Assembly: GCA_963706795.1 (NCBI GenBank)
Contig: OY970170.1
Coordinates: 960,001 to 992,000 of the forward strand
DNA from: Candidatus Saccharimonadota bacterium
Lineage (GTDB): Bacteria; Patescibacteriota; Gracilibacteria; BD1-5; UBA2023
DNA: 32,000 nt
Direction of reading: 5' to 3'
Part shown: positions 11,786-19,512 of the stretch, piece after piece
Layout: each line of letters begins with the position of its first letter
Numbering within the stretch: position 1 is the stretch's first letter
Translations under genes and position numbers: made by a program
The notes under the pieces: model-generated
Databases searched by the model: none
The model's input: only the letters and a program-made list of their open reading frames with translations
Told to the model about the DNA's origin: nothing

Positions 11786-13789
11786 ATGCGTAGCTTCAAT
11801 ACAAAAAAATGAGTGCAGTCCTTGGCGGTGTTTATTGTGACCTTGTGACTTGGATGCATGCTGTATACAGGGCTTTTTGGTCTCATTGGGACTGACTTCA
11901 ATGCATTCTTCCTCTATAAACAATTCAGGGGGGTACCTTCGGGGAATGTGGTGATTGTAAAGATCGACAATGCCTCGCTCGATATTCTCGCGAAGTCGGA
12001 TTTGCGCATTTTGACCTTCACAAAACAGCTCTATATCGATCTCATCGATCGACTCGAAGAAGCAAAAGTACGAGCCATAGGTTTTGATCTTGTCCTTACC
12101 AATCCAGATCCCAAAGAGCAAACACTCGCTGATCTGATAAAAAAATATGGTAATATCACCATCGCGGCCAAGCTTGGTGCGGTTAATGGTGATACCGAGC
12201 GTGTACTGCCTCGAGATCTCTATAGTCGGGATAGTTGGGGAATGATCGATGTCTTTTTTGATAAAAATATTATCACAAAGATCAAGCCGCTCTATGAGCT
12301 CGATACCTCAAAGATCGAAAATATCGCGATTAAACTCTATAGATTATCGACTGGCGATACCGCGCTTGCGGGCAGCGTTCAGGATCACACATATGCCATA
12401 AATCCTCTTCGCAAACTGCCGCTTGATAGCGATGGCTTTGTACGCATCCCATTTTTTAGGAAGCCTGAAACTTTTCCGTCGATTTCGCTCGTTGATGTGT
12501 TGGATCATAAATATGATCCGAGTTTTTTTAAGGACAAAATTGTACTCGTAGGCGAGTACGGAACATTGATCCATGATGCTCATTTCTCGCCGGTGGATTT
12601 TGGTCATGCGATGCCTTGAGTTGAGTTCCATGCAAATATGCTCGAGTGACTACTCTCAGGTAAATTTTTAAATCCCATTTCGAATATAGCCTCTTGGATT
12701 TTGGCCATCTTGCTCGGATTTTGTTCGTACGTGCTTGTGGTCTATGGTCGTATAAAATGGAATGTTATCTATTTTTGTACGCTTCCTTTTATCCTCTTGA
12801 TCGTGTCATGGTATGGAATGGCCGAGGCAGGATTTATGGTGAATTTGTTTTTGCTGCTGGTCGTCTGAATTATCGCTCCGCTCGTCGTTTGAGTGCTCTA
12901 TCGATATTTTGTCGTTGATTCGATGCGACGATTTATTGCGAATGCCTTTTCGCACTATATTTCGCCTGATGTGGTAACGGAGATTGCTAATCATCCTGAG
13001 ATTTTTGCTCTCGGCGGTGAGAAGCGTGAACTCACGGTAACATTCTCAGATATTGCAGGATTTACGACAATTTCGGAGACACTTGGTACAGATCGGCTCT
13101 TCACACTTATTAGTGAATATCTCTCGGAGATGACTGATATTCTCGTTGCCAATCGTGGAACGCTCGACAAATATATTGGCGACGCGGTGATGGGATTTTA
13201 TGGAGCTCCACTTCCACTGGATCGCCCTGAATTTTTGGCCTGCAAGACCGCACTTGAACAGCAAAAGCGATTACAAATCCTCAGTAAAAAATGGGAAAGT
13301 GAAGGAATTCCAACGGTTGCAGCCCGCATCGGTATCAATCGAGGGGAAGTCATGGTCGGAAATATTGGCTCGCATGATCGTTTTAATTACACGGTCATGG
13401 GTGATAACGTAAATCTCGCTTCTCGTCTCGAATGAATCAATAAAGAATACGGAACTCTCGTCTGTATGAGCGAAGCAGTATATGACCGTGTAAGAGAAGA
13501 TTTCGTCTGCCGCCGACTCGACTGTATCCGCGTAAAATGAAAGCATGAAGCCGTTACGATCTATGAACTCATCACATTCAAATGAATGAATGACTTCGAT
13601 CCCGATATGCTTGCTAATTACGAATCCGCGCTGAACCTCTATTTTGAGGGGCAATACAAAAAAGCGCGTGAACTCTTTGCGCGTTATCCCGATGATGCTC
13701 CGTCCGCCATTATGGGAGTTCGCTGTCTCTCACTCATCGCCGGTACCACCAAGCTCGAAAACGGTATCTTTACTATGACAGAGAAGTAA
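11786..13789 (+). CDS. CHASE2 sensor domain / class III adenylate (or guanylate) cyclase, 667 aa, nine in-frame TGA
   Basis: Pieces 11858..12619, 12893..13435 and 13586..13789 plus gaps are one frame starting at ATG 11786. The CHASE2-like part has VVIVKIDNASL..AIGFDLVL..HAMP-G-VEFHANMLE-G-LL followed by 3 TM segments. The cyclase core has ELTVTFSDIAGFTTISE..KYIGDAVMGFYGAP..RIGINRGEVMVGNIGS..FNYTVMGDNVNLASRLE-G-..IRVK-G-KHEAVTIYEL. Confidence 0.85.
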
Positions 13790-13801: not shown

Positions 13802-13829
13802 TTGAATAATCATATAATCCCTATATGAT
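13802..13829 (+). promoter_or_regulatory. Candidate promoter TTGAAT-N16-TATGAT for the T-box leader/operon
   Basis: TTGAAT at 13802-13807 and TATGAT at 13824-13829. An alternative TATAAT at 13813-13818 lacks a good -35. Confidence 0.35.
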
Positions 13830-13836
13830 ATCTCTC

Positions 13837-14016
13837 GTTACAGACGTCTGAGCGGCTATCAACCGCGAGTCGAGGAAAGAACGCCCCCGCTAGTAGAATC
13901 CTCCGGTCACTCCCGTTATAGAGTCCAATCAAGTACAGCCAAGGTGGTACCTTCCTACTTCGCTCTGATGAGCTACGTAGGACCAAGGCATGAAAGTTAT
14001 TTTTCATGTCTTTTTT
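13837..14016 (+). promoter_or_regulatory. T-box-like tRNA(Ile)-sensing leader with short Stem I, upstream of yjjX-HD-ileS-tag
   Basis: Elements occur in canonical order.
- Tandem GA/GA (13850-51 / 13867-68) under a 4-bp stem (13852-55 / 13863-66).
- 7-nt loop CUAUCAA, with AUC at 13858-60 followed by A.
- Stem II GAGGA/UCCUC (13872-76 / 13899-903) with a GAA/AGUA S-turn (13879-81 / 13892-95).
- CCGUUA F-box (13913-18).
- GGUGGUACC T-box core (13943-51).
- Antiterminator helices 13938-44/13983-89 and 13953-58/13977-82.
- A terminator that competes with the antiterminator. Confidence 0.65.
13985..14016 (+). terminator. Intrinsic terminator of the leader
   Basis: AAGGCATGAAA-loop-TTTCATGTCTT followed by TTTT. 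Its 5' arm overlaps the 3' arm of the proposed antiterminator. Confidence 0.7.
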
Positions 14017-14020
14017 GTGT

Positions 14021-14569
14021 ATGCAAAACCTCCACTTTGCGCTCTGAACCACCAATGGTCCAAAGACTCAAGCGATCGAAAAAGCCCTGGGCAATTGTCC
14101 GTATTTCAAAGAATATACAATTATGGGTTACAAAGTCCCATCGGGTGTTTCGGATATGCCGCTCTCACTTCAGGAGCTTCGAGAGGGTGCAAAAAATAGA
14201 GCTCAGGCGATCATAGCTCTCGGGATCGAAGCAGATTACTACGTAGGAATGGAGGGTGGTGTATTTCCAGATCCTATTGGACCTGAGACATGGATGGCGG
14301 GTGTGATCTATATCGAGTCCGTCCATAAAGTTGGTCACTATGGATATACGACGCACATTCGAGTTCCGGACAAGATTCGAGATCGACTCTATGATGGGAG
14401 CAATGCAGATCTCGAAACCATTATGCACGAACTCGCAGGCATAGAATCCGTTGGCGAGAAAAATGGCTCATTCGGAGCATGGTCGGATGATATGATTACC
14501 CGCACTGATGCCTTCGCAAGTGCGACACAGGCGGCGCTCGCACCGTTCTTCAATAACTTTTATAAATAG
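14021..14569 (+). CDS. yjjX: Inosine/xanthosine triphosphatase-like NTPase (YjjX/DUF84 family), one in-frame TGA (14045-14047)
   Basis: Restarting at ATG 14021 gives MQNLHFAL-G-TTNGPKTQAIEKAL..VPSGVSDMPLSLQELREGAKNRAQ. This parallels E. coli YjjX (..[32 protein letters not shown], recalled). The ORF track shows only 14123..14569. Confidence 0.8.
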
Positions 14570-14570
14570 T

Positions 14571-15143
14571 ATGAAGCAATCAATCGCAAAATTCATTTTT
14601 GAGATGCAGCATCTCAAGCAGATTAAACACGAATGATGGAGAACGGTCGGCGTGCAGTTTCCTGATAGTGTGGCCGAACACTCTCTCTGTGCAGCACAGA
14701 TTGCATATATTCTCGCTCAGATGGAGTGAGTAGATCCCTGTAAAGTAACGACGATGCTTGTGTGGCATGACATGGCAGAATCTCGTATCGGAGATCTTCA
14801 TAAAATCGCTAACCATTATCTTTCTGGCAAGCAAAAAGCCGAAGATCAGGTCATGGAGGATCAAGTTGGGCATATGGATTTTGGATCGCATATCATTGAT
14901 CTTGTCCATGAATACGAAGTTCATGAGACGCTCGAATGAAAGATCGCCAAAGATGCTGACTATCTCGAACAGGCCTTCCAAGCTCGTGTTTACCAGCAAT
15001 CAGGCTACGAAGGAACTGCATTGTTCATAGAAAATGTTGGTCGAGCTCTCAAGACAGAGAGTGCACGAAGTCTATGGAGTGAAATTTCTTCAATGGATTT
15101 CTGGGAATGGTCTAAAAATTACAACTATCACCCAAAATCATAA
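14571..15143 (+). CDS. HD-domain phosphohydrolase (YfbR-like 5'-nucleotidase family, HD_3), three in-frame TGA
   Basis: MKQS..LKQIKHE-G-WRTVGVQFPDSVAEHSL..MLVWHDMAESRIGDL..KDADYLEQ gives the H..HD..D metal motif. The gene is invisible in the standard-code track apart from fragment 14754..14939. TAA at 15141-15143. Confidence 0.8.
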
Positions 15144-15171
15144 TTCTCCTCAAGATATTAATTCAAAATAT

Positions 15172-18100
15172 ATGTTCCCATCTGTAGATCCAAAACAGTC
15201 ATTTCCAGCTCTGGAAGACAACGTACTCGCATTTTGGCGAGAAAATAAAACCTTCGAAAAATCTGTCACAAGTCGTGCGGATGCGCAGGAGTTTACATTT
15301 TATGATGGGCCTCCATTTGCGACGGGGACTCCTCACTACGGTCACATCCTTGCAGGTATCCTCAAGGATGTAGTTCCACGATATTGGACGATGCAGGGTC
15401 GTCGCGTAGAGCGCAGATTTGGTTGGGATACGCACGGTCTCCCGATCGAGAATATCGTCGAGAAAAAACTCGGGATTTCTGGGAAGAAAGACATCGAAGA
15501 AAAGGTCGGAGTTTTTGCATTTAACGAAGAATGTCGCAAGAACGTCTTTACCTATGTCGATGAATGGAAAAAAGTCGTAGAACGCTCGGGTCGATGGGTC
15601 GACATGGAGAACGACTACAAGACGCTCGACTGTGATTTCATGGAATCCGTTTGGTGGGTATTTAAGACGGTGCACGACAAGGGGCTCATCTACGAGTCTC
15701 ACCGTGTTGTTCCATACTGTCCACGATGTTCGACTCCGCTTTCGAACTTTGAGGTCAATCAGGGCTACGAAAATCGTCAGGACAAAGCACTGACTGTGAA
15801 ATTTAAGCTCTTAGATCAAGAAAATACCTCCGTTCTTGCATGGACGACCACGCCTTGGACACTTCCTGCGAACCTCGGACTCGCAGTTGGTGAAGCGGTT
15901 GAATACGCAAAGATCAAGGATCATGCAACGGGAGAATTCTATATTCTCGCACATGATCGAGTAGCGACGTACTACAAAAATCCTGAACTTTTTGATCTCA
16001 TCGAAACATTCTCTGGATCTACTCTGGTAGGACTTGGATATGAGCCAGTCGCTCAGGATGTTCGTGAGCTCGATGAGGTAGTCGCTGGTGGCGATATTGC
16101 GACTTGGTACAAACCAGGCAGTAATATGTATACTGTACAGCTCGGTCATCATGTAACAACCGACTCCGGTACAGGTGTGGTTCATATTGCTCCAGCATAC
16201 GGTGAGGACGACGCAGCAATCGGGAAGCTTACGCAGATGGGATTTTATCTCCACATCGATGCAGCTGGAAAAGTCGAGCACTGCGAATTTGGAAATAGTG
16301 AATGGGTGTTTGATTTTAATCAAACTGTCATCGATCGACTCAAGGCGGCAGGGAAGATGGTGCATGTAGGAACGATCGATCATTCGTACCCACATTGTTA
16401 CCGATGCCATACTCCGCTCATCTACCGAGCGATCAGCGCATGGTATCTCAATGTTGAATCCATCCGAGAGCGCATGCTCGCTTCCAACGCGAAAACTCGT
16501 TGGGTTCCAGAAAATATCCGCGAAGGGCGATTTGGAAAATGGCTCGAGGGCGCGCGCGACTGGAATATCTCCCGTAACCGTTACTGGGGCTCTGCGATCC
16601 CAGTATGGAAGAGCGAAGATGGTGAAATCCTCGTCATCGGATCAGTCGAAGAACTCTACGAATACAACAAACCATTCGGCGATATCGAAAAGCGCGCTGA
16701 AGGATATTTCTACTCGGCAAATGGTGCAATCGGAAACGAAACGCCGATTGATATCCACAAGCACTACGTCGACAAAATCCTCCTTCAAAAGAACGGGAAA
16801 ACCTTCACACGTATCCCAGAAGTCCTCGACTGTTGGTTCGAATCTGGATCGATGCCGTATGCACAAAAGCATTATCCATTTGAGAACAAAGAAGCCTTCG
16901 AAGCGTCATTCCCTGCGGATTTCATCTGTGAAGGACTCGACCAGACACGTGGATGGTTCTATACACTCGTGGTTCTTTCAACTGCGCTCTTTGATTCGCC
17001 AGCATTCCAGAATGTCATCGTAAATGGAATCCTCCTCGCCGAAGATGGACGAAAGATGAGTAAGTCGCTCCAAAACTATCCAGATCCGATGGAGCTCTTG
17101 GGCCGCCACGGAGCAGACGCGGTTCGACTCTACCTCATGTCTTCTCCTTCTGTTCGTGCCGAAGAGCTTCGATTCTCTGAATCTGATGTCATCGAGACGG
17201 TCAAGAAGGGAATTCTCCCACTTTGGAATACTTACTCGTTCTTCACAACCTACGCGAATATCGACGGATGGAAGCCAAATACGGGTTCACTCCACTTCGT
17301 TCGACACGGAGAAACTGATGCCAATCTCGAGATGCGACTCTCAGATGGAGGAGAAAATTCTCCGCTCAATACACTCGGTCAATCACAGGCAACAGCCACT
17401 GGTAAACGCCTCGCTGAAGCAGGAACGCAGTTTGATGTGATCGTTGCATCACCGCTTGCACGGGCTCACAAAACAGCTGAGCTTATCGCGAAGGAAGTCG
17501 GATTCACAGGCGAGATCGTAACCGAAAATTGTCTCTCAGAACACTCTGCAGGATGTTATTCTGGTCGAGCATATGACGAGATCATCGAGGAACATTTCAA
17601 GGAAACAGGCGTTCGTTATGAGCGTCACGAGGTGATCTCTCAGATCGTAAAAAATCATCCAAGTTCCGAATCCAACGAAGACTTCGATGCACGCAATGCA
17701 AAATTCTACGAAGAACTCGTGGGTCGATACCCTGGGAAGAAGATCCTCGTAGTAGCCCACGGTGGAACATTCCGCTCTTGGTGCAAACATGTCTTCGGGC
17801 TCACACACGAAGCAGCGTTTACCCGAGCATATGCGATCAAAAACGCAGAATGCGTACAGCTTCCGATGGTCGTTCGCGCGAATCCGCTCGATCGATGGGT
17901 GATGGGAGAACTTCATACACTCAGTGCAAAAGTACAAGACAGTTTTGAGCGCTACGAGCTCCAGTCGGCCTCTCGTGCGATCGTAGAATTCATGGACGAT
18001 CTCACTAACTGGTATGTTCGTCGTTCACGTCGAAGATTCTGGAAGAGTGAGAGCGACTCAGACAAGGCTTCTGCATACGAGACGCTCTATACCGTGCTCA

Positions 18101-18933
18101 CAACGCTCTGCAAGATCGCAGCTCCGATCATCCCATTCGTCACTGAACACGTGTATCGCAACCTCACAGGTCACGAAAGTGTGCACCTGGAGTATTTCCC
18201 AGCGTTCGATCGTTTCGCGGTTTCTCCGCAGCTGCTTGCGGATATGAAGAAGACGAAAGAACTCGTGACTCTCGGTCTCGCGCTCCGATCACGCAAGAAA
18301 CTCCGCGTTCGTCAGCCACTCGCATCGATCACGATCGGCGAAAACCTCGACGACTACTTCCTCGAAATCCTCCGCGAAGAACTCAACGTCAAAGAAGTAA
18401 AATTCGATGACATGTCCAAACACGCGAAGCTCGTTTGTAAGCCAAACGCACGACTCATCGGACCGAAGTTCGGGAAGGAAGTACAGGCAGTGATCGTTGC
18501 CGCAAAATCTGGAAACTTCAGTTCACTCGACGATGGAAAGGTGCAGGTTGGAGCATTCGTGCTCGAAGCAGGGGAGTACGAACTCGCCTACGAGCCACTC
18601 ACCGAAGATGCAGACATCGAAGGAGGAGCAGGAATGGTCCTCATGATGGATACCCATGTAACCGATGATCTCAGACTCGAAGGATACGCCCGCGACATCG
18701 TCCGCGCGATCCAGGATCTTCGCAAAGAATCTGCCTTTGATGTATCGGATCGTATCTCGATCGGACTCATGGCGGATACAGATATCGCTCGCGCTTGCGA
18801 AATGTTCCAATCGATCATCATGAACGAAACACTCGCGACCTCTCTTCAGATGAGTGAACTCCCAGGAGCTACCGCTCGCCGTGAAGAATCCCTCGATGAT
18901 ATGAAATTTACCCTCACTATCGCTCGTGTCTAA
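15172..18933 (+). CDS. ileS: Isoleucyl-tRNA synthetase, type 2, 1253 aa, carrying an internal histidine-phosphatase domain
   Basis: FYDGPPFATGTPHYGHIL (HIGH), GRKMSKSL (KMSKS) and NWYVRRSRRRFWK. ATG 15172 was chosen because the upstream part of track ORF 15034.. overlaps the HD gene. No in-frame TGA. Confidence 0.95.
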   Translation: MFPSVDPKQSFPALEDNVLAFWRENKTFEKSVTSRADAQEFTFYDGPPFATGTPHYGHILAGILKDVVPRYWTMQGRRVERRFGWDTHGLPIENIVEKKLGISGKKDIEEKVGVFAFNEECRKNVFTYVDEWKKVVERSGRWVDMENDYKTLDCDFMESVWWVFKTVHDKGLIYESHRVVPYCPRCSTPLSNFEVNQGYENRQDKALTVKFKLLDQENTSVLAWTTTPWTLPANLGLAVGEAVEYAKIKDHATGEFYILAHDRVATYYKNPELFDLIETFSGSTLVGLGYEPVAQDVRELDEVVAGGDIATWYKPGSNMYTVQLGHHVTTDSGTGVVHIAPAYGEDDAAIGKLTQMGFYLHIDAAGKVEHCEFGNSEWVFDFNQTVIDRLKAAGKMVHVGTIDHSYPHCYRCHTPLIYRAISAWYLNVESIRERMLASNAKTRWVPENIREGRFGKWLEGARDWNISRNRYWGSAIPVWKSEDGEILVIGSVEELYEYNKPFGDIEKRAEGYFYSANGAIGNETPIDIHKHYVDKILLQKNGKTFTRIPEVLDCWFESGSMPYAQKHYPFENKEAFEASFPADFICEGLDQTRGWFYTLVVLSTALFDSPAFQNVIVNGILLAEDGRKMSKSLQNYPDPMELLGRHGADAVRLYLMSSPSVRAEELRFSESDVIETVKKGILPLWNTYSFFTTYANIDGWKPNTGSLHFVRHGETDANLEMRLSDGGENSPLNTLGQSQATATGKRLAEAGTQFDVIVASPLARAHKTAELIAKEVGFTGEIVTENCLSEHSAGCYSGRAYDEIIEEHFKETGVRYERHEVISQIVKNHPSSESNEDFDARNAKFYEELVGRYPGKKILVVAHGGTFRSWCKHVFGLTHEAAFTRAYAIKNAECVQLPMVVRANPLDRWVMGELHTLSAKVQDSFERYELQSASRAIVEFMDDLTNWYVRRSRRRFWKSESDSDKASAYETLYTVLTTLCKIAAPIIPFVTEHVYRNLTGHESVHLEYFPAFDRFAVSPQLLADMKKTKELVTLGLALRSRKKLRVRQPLASITIGENLDDYFLEILREELNVKEVKFDDMSKHAKLVCKPNARLIGPKFGKEVQAVIVAAKSGNFSSLDDGKVQVGAFVLEAGEYELAYEPLTEDADIEGGAGMVLMMDTHVTDDLRLEGYARDIVRAIQDLRKESAFDVSDRISIGLMADTDIARACEMFQSIIMNETLATSLQMSELPGATARREESLDDMKFTLTIARV
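17287..17886 (+). other. Histidine-phosphatase (PGAM/CobC/SixA superfamily) domain inserted in IleRS (about aa 706-903)
   Basis: SLHFVRHGETDAN (RHG), NTLGQSQA, ASPLARAHKTAE, CLSEHSAGCYSG and KILVVAHGGTFRSW (second catalytic His). The flanks are the IleRS segments ..LWNTYSFFTTYANID and NPLDRWVMGEL... Confidence 0.8.
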
Positions 18934-19480
18934 TCCACTCAATCGCTGCTCTTGGGTCAACAACGACCCACTCTACCAGTCATACCACGACGAAGAGTGG
19001 GGAGTTCCCGAGCATGATTCACTCGCACTTTTCGAACTCTTCTGTCTCGAAGGACAACAAGCCGGACTTTCCTGGTTCACGGTGCTCAAGCGTCGAGAGT
19101 CCATGCGACGTGTTTTCGATGGATTCGATCCCGACAAACTCGCTCGCTGGACGGATGATGACATGGCCCGAGCCCTCCTCGATCCCGGGATTATCCGACT
19201 CCCACTCAAGGTCCAAGCCGTCATCAAAAATGCCCGCGCATTCCTCACACTTCGTGATGAAGGCATCGACTTCGCCGACTATCTCTGGAGCTTTGCACCT
19301 GCTGATAAATACACCTATGCGCACGAACGCACGATCACATGTCTCGAGTCCGATGCGATGTCCAAAGCACTCAAGAAACGAGGTTTTGGATTTTGTGGCT
19401 CGACCATCTGCTACGCCTTCATGCAAGCATGCGGGATGGTGGATGATCATGGAGCAGGGTGCTTTCGATACAAGAAATAG
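18926..19480 (+). CDS. tag: DNA-3-methyladenine glycosylase I
   Basis: RCSWVNNDPLYQSYHDEEWGVPEHDS..LEGQQAGLSWFTVLKRRE..ALKKRGFGFCGSTICYAFMQACGMVDDH closely parallels E. coli Tag (recalled). The GTG start overlaps the ileS stop by 8 nt. Confidence 0.9.
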   Translation: MSNPLNRCSWVNNDPLYQSYHDEEWGVPEHDSLALFELFCLEGQQAGLSWFTVLKRRESMRRVFDGFDPDKLARWTDDDMARALLDPGIIRLPLKVQAVIKNARAFLTLRDEGIDFADYLWSFAPADKYTYAHERTITCLESDAMSKALKKRGFGFCGSTICYAFMQACGMVDDHGAGCFRYKK

Positions 19481-19512
19481 AAAAAACCACTGGGTAACCA
19501 GTGGTTTTTTTA
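19481..19512. terminator. Bidirectional terminator between tag and ung
   Basis: AAAAAACCACTGG-GTAA-CCAGTGGTTTTTTT. Confidence 0.8.

Follow-up and report, generated by a model that had tools for sequence, protein, structure and literature searches.

A probable ileS T-box variant of the candidate phyla radiation, apparently undescribed, couples the shortest known tRNA-reading arm to a transcription terminator

According to TBDB, T-box riboswitches range over Firmicutes, Actinobacteria, Chloroflexi and Deinococcus-Thermus, together with some horizontal transfers (PMC7778990). According to reviews, control of transcription by T-boxes generally depends on the platform of a long Stem I, Stem III is an integral part of the discriminator, and the antiterminator by itself binds tRNA poorly (PMC7583486; PMC11297988). 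An ultrashort class has also been described, in which a short Stem I presents the Specifier in its terminal loop. It is known only from ileS, acts on translation and is actinobacterial (bioRxiv 10.1101/2023.02.28.530422; PMC7583486; PMC12990946). Examples are the ileS leaders of Mycobacterium tuberculosis and M. smegmatis, reported by Sherwood, Grundy & Henkin (2015) as cited in PMC7583486 and bioRxiv 10.1101/2023.02.28.530422. In TBDB, the class II model was run on Actinobacteria only (PMC7778990 and its supplement). Open-access full text yielded no T-box report for Gracilibacteria, Patescibacteria, Parcubacteria or the candidate phyla radiation (CPR), which is not proof of absence. Here, a leader with such a short Stem I is described from a gracilibacterial genome, in a stretch of 32,000 nucleotides (nt) of contig OY970170.1 (positions 960,001 to 992,000), referred to below as the window. 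With a probability of roughly 85%, positions 13836-14016 of its forward (+) strand form the leader RNA of a yjjX-HD-ileS-tag operon and are a tRNA-Ile(GAU) T-box riboswitch that acts by transcription attenuation. The initial annotation of the window had proposed a T-box-like tRNA(Ile) leader coupled to a terminator at this place, and conservation, covariation and association with ileS all lend support to that interpretation.

The sequence and structure elements of the leader are present and conserved with compensatory changes, and their association with ileS is strict. The comparison draws on 96 loci (about 1.1 Mb), collected by a genome scan with YjjX, from ten contigs of IleRS relatives and by a metagenome scan with an IleRS alignment. 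Among them are 16 distinct leaders of the Gracilibacteria/Peribacteria type, of 24-56% guanine plus cytosine (GC), which were placed in an unfitted MAFFT alignment and compared with a six-helix model of 30 pairs. The leader is found at every one of the 16 distinct TGA-recoded ileS loci for which sufficient upstream DNA is available; the sole miss (L023) is a contig that ends after 286 nt of upstream sequence. In every Gracilibacteria-type locus, the core GGUGGUA(C/A)C lies 5′ of ileS and on its strand. In the unfitted alignment, 90.8% of cells are paired, compared with 77.4 ± 1.0% in shuffled alignments (0 of 500 as high) and 35-51% when the model is slid. Two-sided changes are found in 21 of the 30 pairs, and the covariation score is 0.531, against 0.269 for shuffles and at most 0.168 for slid models. 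When 26 distinct sequences are used, in a model-fitted alignment that leans towards the structure, the paired cells rise to 92.6% (67.8% in shuffles) and the pairs with two-sided changes to 28 of 30. Covariation among orthologous leaders, named as a check in the initial annotation, is strongly positive: the helices vary, while AUC and UGGU stay constant.

The window can also be recognized from its relatives. RNAalifold run on 13 leaders, with the window and its two closest relatives left out, recovers the Stem I base, Stem II, Stem IIA and the antiterminator helices A1 and A2. A covariance model built from these 13 other loci, with the structure taken from RNAalifold, matches the window end to end at 13838-13989, with 80 bits and an E-value of about 2e-15, a rough figure given the shortened calibration of these models; the runner-up in the 32 kb reaches 6.9 bits. 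A full model, R1, finds 30 matches on both strands of the 1.1 Mb, all of them upstream of ileS on its strand, and none other at E ≤ 1. The position within operons points in the same direction. In one locus (L011) the order is yjjX-dNK-[leader]-...-ileS, and no leader was found at two loci with yjjX and no ileS (L002 and L003); the element thus goes with ileS rather than with yjjX. At another locus (L014), the leader stands at the head of a seven-gene operon that ends in ileS.

The 5′ part of the leader comprises a promoter-like site and a very short Stem I:

13802-13829, + strand: promoter-like site from a consensus scan, with -35 TTGAAT (13802-07), a 16-nt spacer and -10 TATGAT (13824-29)
13843-13871, + strand: ultrashort Stem I (29 nt)
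13843-45/13869-71, + strand: Stem I base helix of 3 base pairs (bp), GAC/GUC, plus a GUCU bulge
13850-51 and 13867-68, + strand: K-turn-like tandem GA, a sequence-level match
13852-55/13863-66, + strand: Stem I upper helix of 4 bp, GCGG/CCGC
13856-62, + strand: terminal Specifier loop CUAUCAA, with AUC at 13858-60 followed by the purine A13861

Judging by the promoter-like site, transcription probably starts near 13836. A pattern of the form TTGNNN-N15-18-TANNNT ends 6-22 nt 5′ of the Stem I base in 15 of the 16 orthologous leaders. The helices of Stem I pair in 94-100% of cells, with two-sided changes in six of seven pairs. Within the terminal loop, AUC is the only constant triplet and is invariant in all 26 distinct leaders, across their 24-56% GC; the base 3′ of it is A in 24 of the 26. 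Loop positions 1-2 and 7 vary, the flanks seen being CU, AA, AU, UU, AG and CA. Since AUC is an Ile codon read by a GAU anticodon and the downstream gene is ileS, the loop indicates specificity for tRNA-Ile. A T-box Specifier is expected in a loop of Stem I, should match the amino acid of the regulated gene and should have a conserved purine on its 3′ side; AUC-A ahead of ileS agrees with this. The S-turn has been reported to prefer G34, with which a codon ending in C agrees (PMC7583486). The UGA...GA pattern around the Stem I helices is conserved at the level of sequence only, and its 3′ GA is AA in 4 of 16 leaders. The 4-bp stem, the CUAUCAA loop with AUC-A and the tandem GA/GA of the initial annotation were all found where it had placed them. 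Canonical class I T-boxes have a long Stem I that holds the Specifier in an internal loop and bears, at its far end, a platform of interdigitated T-loops that stacks on the tRNA elbow; this leader has no such stem.

Stem I is followed directly by Stem II, a pseudoknot and a linker:

13872-13903, + strand: Stem II, with base helix GAGGA/UCCUC (13872-76/13899-903)
13877-81 and 13891-98, + strand: Stem II internal loop, AAGAA opposite UAGUAGAA
13879-81/13892-95, + strand: S-turn motif GAA/AGUA, a sequence-level match
13883-90, + strand: apical hairpin of Stem II, GC-CCCC-GC, of variable length among leaders
13904-06/13913-15, + strand: Stem IIA, CGG/CCG
13909-12/13921-24, + strand: Stem IIB, ACUC/GAGU
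13913-18, + strand: F-box CCGUUA, within the IIA/B pseudoknot (13904-13924)
13925-13937, + strand: linker with the purine string AAGUA (the 'RAG' motif, 13931-35)

The base helix of Stem II is paired in 91% of cells, and two-sided changes affect four of its five pairs in the 16 leaders and all five in the 26 sequences. AAGAA and AGAA/AGAC are conserved in this stem; the G of AGUA is variable among relatives. The pseudoknot cannot enter a covariance model, so its covariation is an independent test. In 12 sequences, 91.7% of its cells are paired, compared with 77.0% in shuffles (0 of 500 as high) and 26-43% when slid. The two central pairs of IIB covary: one is GC in seven and UA in five of these sequences, and the other occurs as AU (3), CG (3), GC (2), UA (2) and UG (1). 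In an AT-rich subgroup of Gracilibacteria, no consistent partner was found for IIB. Stem II with its GAA/AGUA S-turn and the CCGUUA F-box, as first described, are present at their expected coordinates and conserved, and the S-turn combined with an F-box pseudoknot is typical of T-boxes. In the linker, RAG(U/C)A is conserved. There is no room for Stem III, which class I leaders possess, as just 2 nt separate AAGUA from helix A1 at 13938. A hairpin at this site occurs in only two Gracilibacteria-type leaders (L013, 3534-3557, and L021, 2745-2768), the other 14 being without it, and also in some Parcubacteria-type relatives. Stem III has thus been gained or lost inside one close family.

The 3′ part of the leader contains the two competing structures:

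13938-13989, + strand: antiterminator (discriminator core), whose fold scores -19.0 kcal/mol
13941-51, + strand: T-box core AAGGUGGUACC
13938-44/13983-89, + strand: helix A1, GCCAAGG/CCAAGGC, including a tandem A-A mismatch
13945-51, + strand: bulge UGGUACC, with UGGU (13945-48) positioned for a tRNA 3′-ACCA; U13952 is unpaired
13953-58/13977-82, + strand: helix A2, UCCUAC/GUAGGA, with inner hairpin GCUC-UGAU-GAGC
13985-14016, + strand: intrinsic terminator, with hairpin AAGGCAUGAAAG-UUAU-UUUUCAUGUCUU (core 13987-14010) and U6 (14011-16)

Helix A2 is paired in 94% of cells and has two-sided changes in all six pairs. In A1, both GG/CC pairs are invariant, and the lower part alternates between GCC/GGC and GCUUU/AAAGC. 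Unguided RNAalifold recovers A1, the bulge and A2 with UGGUACC unpaired. A 7-nt UGGNACC bulge between these two helices is expected of a T-box, and it reads UGGUACC or UGGUAAC in all 16 Gracilibacteria-type leaders; the T-box core with UGGU in a bulged antiterminator is present as the initial annotation had it. Two distant relatives have a different bulge, UGGC (L020) and UGGUUCG (L086). The UGGU bulge predicts A73 in the cognate tRNA, and A73 is the usual discriminator of bacterial tRNA-Ile. ARAGORN found a single tRNA-Ile in the 1.1 Mb of collected loci, at a locus of an unrelated lineage with 68% GC (L057), and it ends in A-CCA. As a separate observation, the - strand at 13740-13756, which is the reverse complement of the cyclase coding sequence, holds a chance look-alike of the T-box core, CUUGGUGGUACCGGCG, that neither covariance model matches.

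The antiterminator and the terminator are mutually exclusive, and the energetics favour termination by default. Bases 13985-89 belong both to the 5′ base of the terminator and to the 3′ strand of A1, confirming the overlap first drawn between the antiterminator arm at 13983-89 and the terminator at 13985-14012. The same arrangement is found in all 16 leaders, in which the 3′ strand of A1 contributes 3-7 nt to the base of the terminator; a terminator that uses the 3′ strand of the antiterminator in this way is characteristic of T-boxes. When the shared nucleotides are withheld, the hairpins of the 16 leaders weaken from between -9.8 and -23.2 kcal/mol to between -2.4 and -14.6 kcal/mol, and what remains is 3-7 nt away from the U-tract. 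In the window, the hairpin goes from -12.0 to -3.7 kcal/mol once the five shared nt are withheld, and its remainder lies 5 nt off the U-tract. The A2 hairpin plus the terminator score -24.4 kcal/mol in the window (minimum free energy, MFE, -28.7), compared with -19.0 for the antiterminator. The terminator state is favoured over the antiterminator state by 5-10 kcal/mol, so termination is the default, as in T-boxes. The MFE fold of the whole gap (fold z-score -2.65) does not reproduce the T-box fold, a comparison that is uninformative for an RNA of several states. In all 16 Gracilibacteria-type leaders, the hairpin has a U-run of at least 5 on its 3′ side, also in those from genomes of 42-51% GC; in such genomes U-runs are not background. 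Beyond the hairpin base, the terminator sequences differ entirely between loci.

In several respects, this leader resembles the actinobacterial ultrashort ileS T-boxes, although the comparison with that class rests on published descriptions and not on a direct sequence alignment. Both have a short Stem I with the Specifier AUC in its terminal loop and lie upstream of ileS only; in both the elbow-binding distal platform is absent and a UGGN bulge lies between A1 and A2. The Stem II S-turn and IIA/B are likewise retained, presumably as a compensation. By contrast, the expression platform is here a hairpin with U6, whereas the actinobacterial RNAs use a Shine-Dalgarno sequestrator. The definition of class II as sequestering the ribosome-binding site and lacking an intrinsic terminator does not fit the window, where no Shine-Dalgarno-like sequence is paired; its other half does fit, as the leader precedes ileS and carries its Specifier in the loop that caps a short Stem I. 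Stem III is missing in the window and in most of its relatives, unlike in the actinobacterial RNAs, which possess it. In place of Actinobacteria, the hosts here belong to the CPR (Gracilibacteria, Peribacteria, Parcubacteria and Moranbacteria). The initial annotation had already noted both the likeness to the ultrashort class and the contrast between translational and transcriptional control, accurately, as the literature describes the class in these terms.

The leader also shares much with canonical RF00230 leaders, such as those of Bacillus subtilis tyrS, glyQS and ileS: a K-turn-like GA pattern at the base of Stem I, a Specifier followed by a purine, the purine string, the Stem II S-turn, an F-box in IIA/B, and a GGUGGUACC core with a 7-nt bulge. 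In these leaders too, an antiterminator competes with a terminator and U-run, and termination is the default. Unlike them, it lacks the internal Specifier loop, the AG bulge, the distal T-loops and Stem III; no more than 3-7 nt are shared with the terminator, at the terminator base, and the core runs on as ACCUU, not ACCGCG. T-boxes of the glyQS type are likewise naturally reduced and act by transcription attenuation. What they drop, however, is Stem II and IIA/B, while the platform of the long Stem I is kept along with Stem III, which is the reverse of what is seen here.

A mechanism can be proposed from these elements, in which tRNA binding, charge sensing and control of termination are predictions. 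Transcription would begin at the promoter at 13802-29, and the 5′ half of the RNA would fold into a compact decoding module formed by the ultrashort Stem I with its AUC-A loop, the Stem II S-turn and the IIA/B pseudoknot. This module would bind the anticodon of tRNA-Ile. If the tRNA is uncharged, its 3′-ACCA would pair with the UGGU of the bulge and stabilise A1 and A2. The strand CCAAGGC (13983-89) would then be kept in A1, which would block the base of the terminator and let RNA polymerase read into the operon. With charged tRNA, or with none, the terminator (13985-14012 plus U6), being the more stable structure, would form, and transcription would stop before 14021.

The platform itself bears on whether such a tRNA-Ile T-box might instead control translation, alone or in addition, with the hairpin at 13985-14012 mainly sequestering the start region of yjjX. 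A sequestrator does not need the U-run that follows the hairpin directly in all 16 leaders, those from genomes of 42-51% GC included, and the hairpin pairs neither the start codon nor a Shine-Dalgarno-like sequence. The AUG of yjjX at 14021 is only 9-11 nt past the hairpin, and in several loci the first start codon is 2-10 nt from the U-run, so that a ribosome footprint would overlap the hairpin; yet this distance is variable, reaching about 40 nt from a minimum of 2 across loci. No Shine-Dalgarno sequence is visible, and A/U-rich single-strandedness may therefore matter for initiation. Every ultrashort ileS T-box described before is translational (bioRxiv 10.1101/2023.02.28.530422; PMC7583486). 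Taken together, translational or dual control is unlikely.

Membership of the T-box family was assessed with Rfam and with R1. In Rfam 15, no family matches the window at its gathering score or at E ≤ 10, and at the gathering score there are no matches on 18 related loci either; for RF00230, the T-box family, this score is 93 bits. Below that threshold, RF00230 matches two loci at exactly the coordinates found by R1: L092 scores 53.5 bits (E 3e-11), and L067 scores 23.6 bits (E 0.0012). These belong to ten standard-code loci, in which ileS has no in-frame TGA, that R1 also matches, with leaders at the following positions:

L067, 5716-5874 (Candidatus Parcubacteria)
L089, 5812-5975
L054, 436-600
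L086, 1217-1400
L092, 5776-5975 (Candidatus Moranbacteria)
L059, 5552-5825
L063, 3197-3510 (a CPR bin from the ACD aquifer)
L087, 522-705
L020, 2323-2515
L025, 5258-5485

These standard-code relatives have a short Stem I and a canonical CGGGUAAGCCCGUAA pseudoknot, and none reaches the Rfam gathering score. Their variant Specifier loops include UUAUCCU (L086) and CUAUCUA (L025). The global Rfam alignment of L067 retains the K-turn, Stem II with its S-turn, IIA/B and the T-box core; the K-turn columns fall on UGA...GAG, 78 Stem I positions are reduced to 7 nt, and 19 Stem III positions are replaced by 8 nt. In this leader, A1 is extended by CACC/GGUG and continues directly into U7; a terminator hairpin of its own is absent. 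The chain from RF00230 through L067 and L092 and R1 to the window, together with the feature-by-feature match, makes the leader of the window a divergent member of the T-box family. The miss by RF00230 arises because that model was built on leaders with a long Stem I, and is not a defining biological feature. According to the initial annotation, lack of an RF00230 match together with lack of conservation would refute a T-box; the first is true of the window, the second decisively false. The elements and the family that it proposed have both stood. Its picture has to be extended, as the leader is CPR-wide and not a one-off, and additionally lacks Stem III.

Several points weigh against a tRNA-Ile T-box that attenuates transcription. 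The distal Stem I platform is absent, though held to be required for transcriptional T-boxes, and so is Stem III, though reported as indispensable for binding of the tRNA 3′ end (PMC7583486). RF00230 matches neither the window, as said above, nor the related leaders of L004 and L011 at E ≤ 10. The antiterminator and terminator overlap over a short stretch, 5 nt in the window, and A1 carries a tandem A-A mismatch. Moreover, A73 is an assumption for the tRNA-Ile of this lineage, taken from what is usual in bacteria, and the E-values of the present models are rough.

Some of these points could be turned into a different reading, in which a conserved T-box-like leader senses something else, such as a nucleotide-related metabolite or a protein, for instance IleRS. 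The Rfam T-box model does not match the window, two domains held necessary for capture of the tRNA are absent, and genes for YjjX, HD, MazG, NUDIX, dNK and CYTH proteins occur in the operons. Nevertheless, the NTPase genes change between loci while the element follows ileS, and its two invariant single-stranded sequences are an Ile codon and a complement of NCCA, each in its canonical setting. T-box signatures are also seen in the K-turn-like GA pattern, the S-turn, the F-box pseudoknot, the RAG string and the UGGNACC bulge of 7 nt, and RF00230 aligns globally with L067 and L092, which leaves another ligand very improbable. Finally, the view that there is no regulatory RNA here, the hairpin being a terminator of the cyclase gene, 3′ of whose stop (13789) it lies, and the T-box words occurring by chance in a promoter-bearing spacer, is scarcely credible and refuted already by the comparative data: by chance alone, consensus scans do yield a terminator-like site every 900 nt or so, and the fold z-score of the whole gap is modest, yet the 150-nt element and its terminator are retained where another gene, or a divergent one, lies 5′ of them, covariation is seen in six helices and a pseudoknot, the leave-out model finds the window at the E-value given above, and 15 of 16 loci have a promoter-like site ahead of the element.

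Two other candidates were considered and ruled out. Leader-peptide attenuation fails on the gap itself, which has no conserved small open reading frame (ORF) or run of Ile codons, and a yjjX-linked purine or nucleoside triphosphate riboswitch fails on the association of the element with ileS.

The setting of the leader in the window is as follows:

11786-13789, + strand: CHASE2-adenylate/guanylate cyclase, the 5′ neighbour, with its stop at 13789
14021-14569, + strand: YjjX-type NTPase (YjjX/NTPase_I-T, Pfam)
about 14574-15143, + strand: HD-domain phosphohydrolase (HD_3, Pfam)
15172-18933, + strand: IleRS with an inserted histidine-phosphatase domain (Pfam)
18926-19480, + strand: DNA-3-methyladenine glycosylase I (Tag, Pfam)
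19481-19510, both strands: perfect 13-bp hairpin AAAAAACCACTGG-TTAC-CCAGTGGTTTTTT, with an A-run and a T-run on its flanks

The identity of the remaining genes in the window comes from reading of their translations alone. The window has 45% GC, and TGA is a sense codon: table 11 fragments the genes, and reading TGA as sense merges them into long ORFs. For instance, codon 9 of yjjX is an in-frame TGA (14045) that aligns with a conserved Gly. The leader occupies the 230-base gap between the cyclase stop and the yjjX start. The cyclase stop at 13789, the yjjX start at 14021 and the TGA-recoded ileS operon agree with the gene context first reported. The genes yjjX, HD, ileS and tag are closely packed on the same strand, and a scan for terminators on the + strand of 14017-19480 gave none that is convincing; they probably form a single operon. 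The hairpin at 19481-19510 looks like a bidirectional terminator between tag (+) and a convergent UDG gene (-). The nearest protein relatives are from metagenome-assembled genomes of Candidatus Gracilibacteria, Peribacteria and Altimarinota, with identities of 39-46% for YjjX and 52-93% for IleRS.

The operon has some further features of its own. The ileS gene (1253 codons) has no in-frame TGA, whereas the ileS genes of AT-rich relatives have 35-50, and the cyclase and efflux genes of the window do use TGA. The histidine-phosphatase domain of IleRS (PF00300, E 2.5e-37) is complete, covers residues 707-896, or 17290-17859, with intact RHG and HGG motifs, and separates the catalytic core from the anticodon-binding domain. 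This insertion is common to most of the 120 closest IleRS relatives and to the standard-code CPR loci L020 and L025, and some IleRS relatives (P0012, P0028 and P0040) are further fused to NUDIX and Ser_hydrolase domains. The genes ahead of ileS in Gracilibacteria operons (14021-15143 in the window; also L009, L011 and L013-L016) encode nucleotide 'house-cleaning' enzymes drawn from a set of YjjX NTPase, HD_3, MazG, NUDIX, HAD, dNK, CYTH and Ser_hydrolase, in a composition that is specific to each genome.

On the current view, a transcriptional T-box depends on a long Stem I for capturing the elbow of the tRNA fast enough, an ultrashort Stem I serves slow and reversible translational control in Actinobacteria, and Stem III is integral to the charge sensor (PMC7583486; PMC7778990; PMC11297988). 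What is new here is an ultrashort Stem I combined with an intrinsic terminator, a loss of Stem III that is variable within one family, the presence of such leaders in several CPR lineages, and the fact that RF00230 does not see them. There is about an even chance that Gracilibacteria, Peribacteria, Parcubacteria and Moranbacteria harbour an undescribed, phylum-spanning group of minimal transcriptional T-boxes of some 150 nt, without the elbow platform and mostly without Stem III, that decide on termination co-transcriptionally. If this is true, neither the elbow platform nor Stem III would be intrinsically needed for kinetic control, and the ultrashort architecture would be ancient, or exchanged along with ileS, and not an actinobacterial adaptation to translational control. 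An ultrashort Stem I with a terminator and mostly no Stem III thus offers a natural test of the rules of T-boxes, and a very small scaffold for engineering. As RF00230 overlooks a whole branch of the family, databases that are based on it under-count T-boxes. For the annotation of these genomes, the leader would explain the long 'empty' gap ahead of their ileS operons. More broadly, it would extend T-box regulation to the candidate phyla radiation, whose members have tiny genomes and few known regulators.

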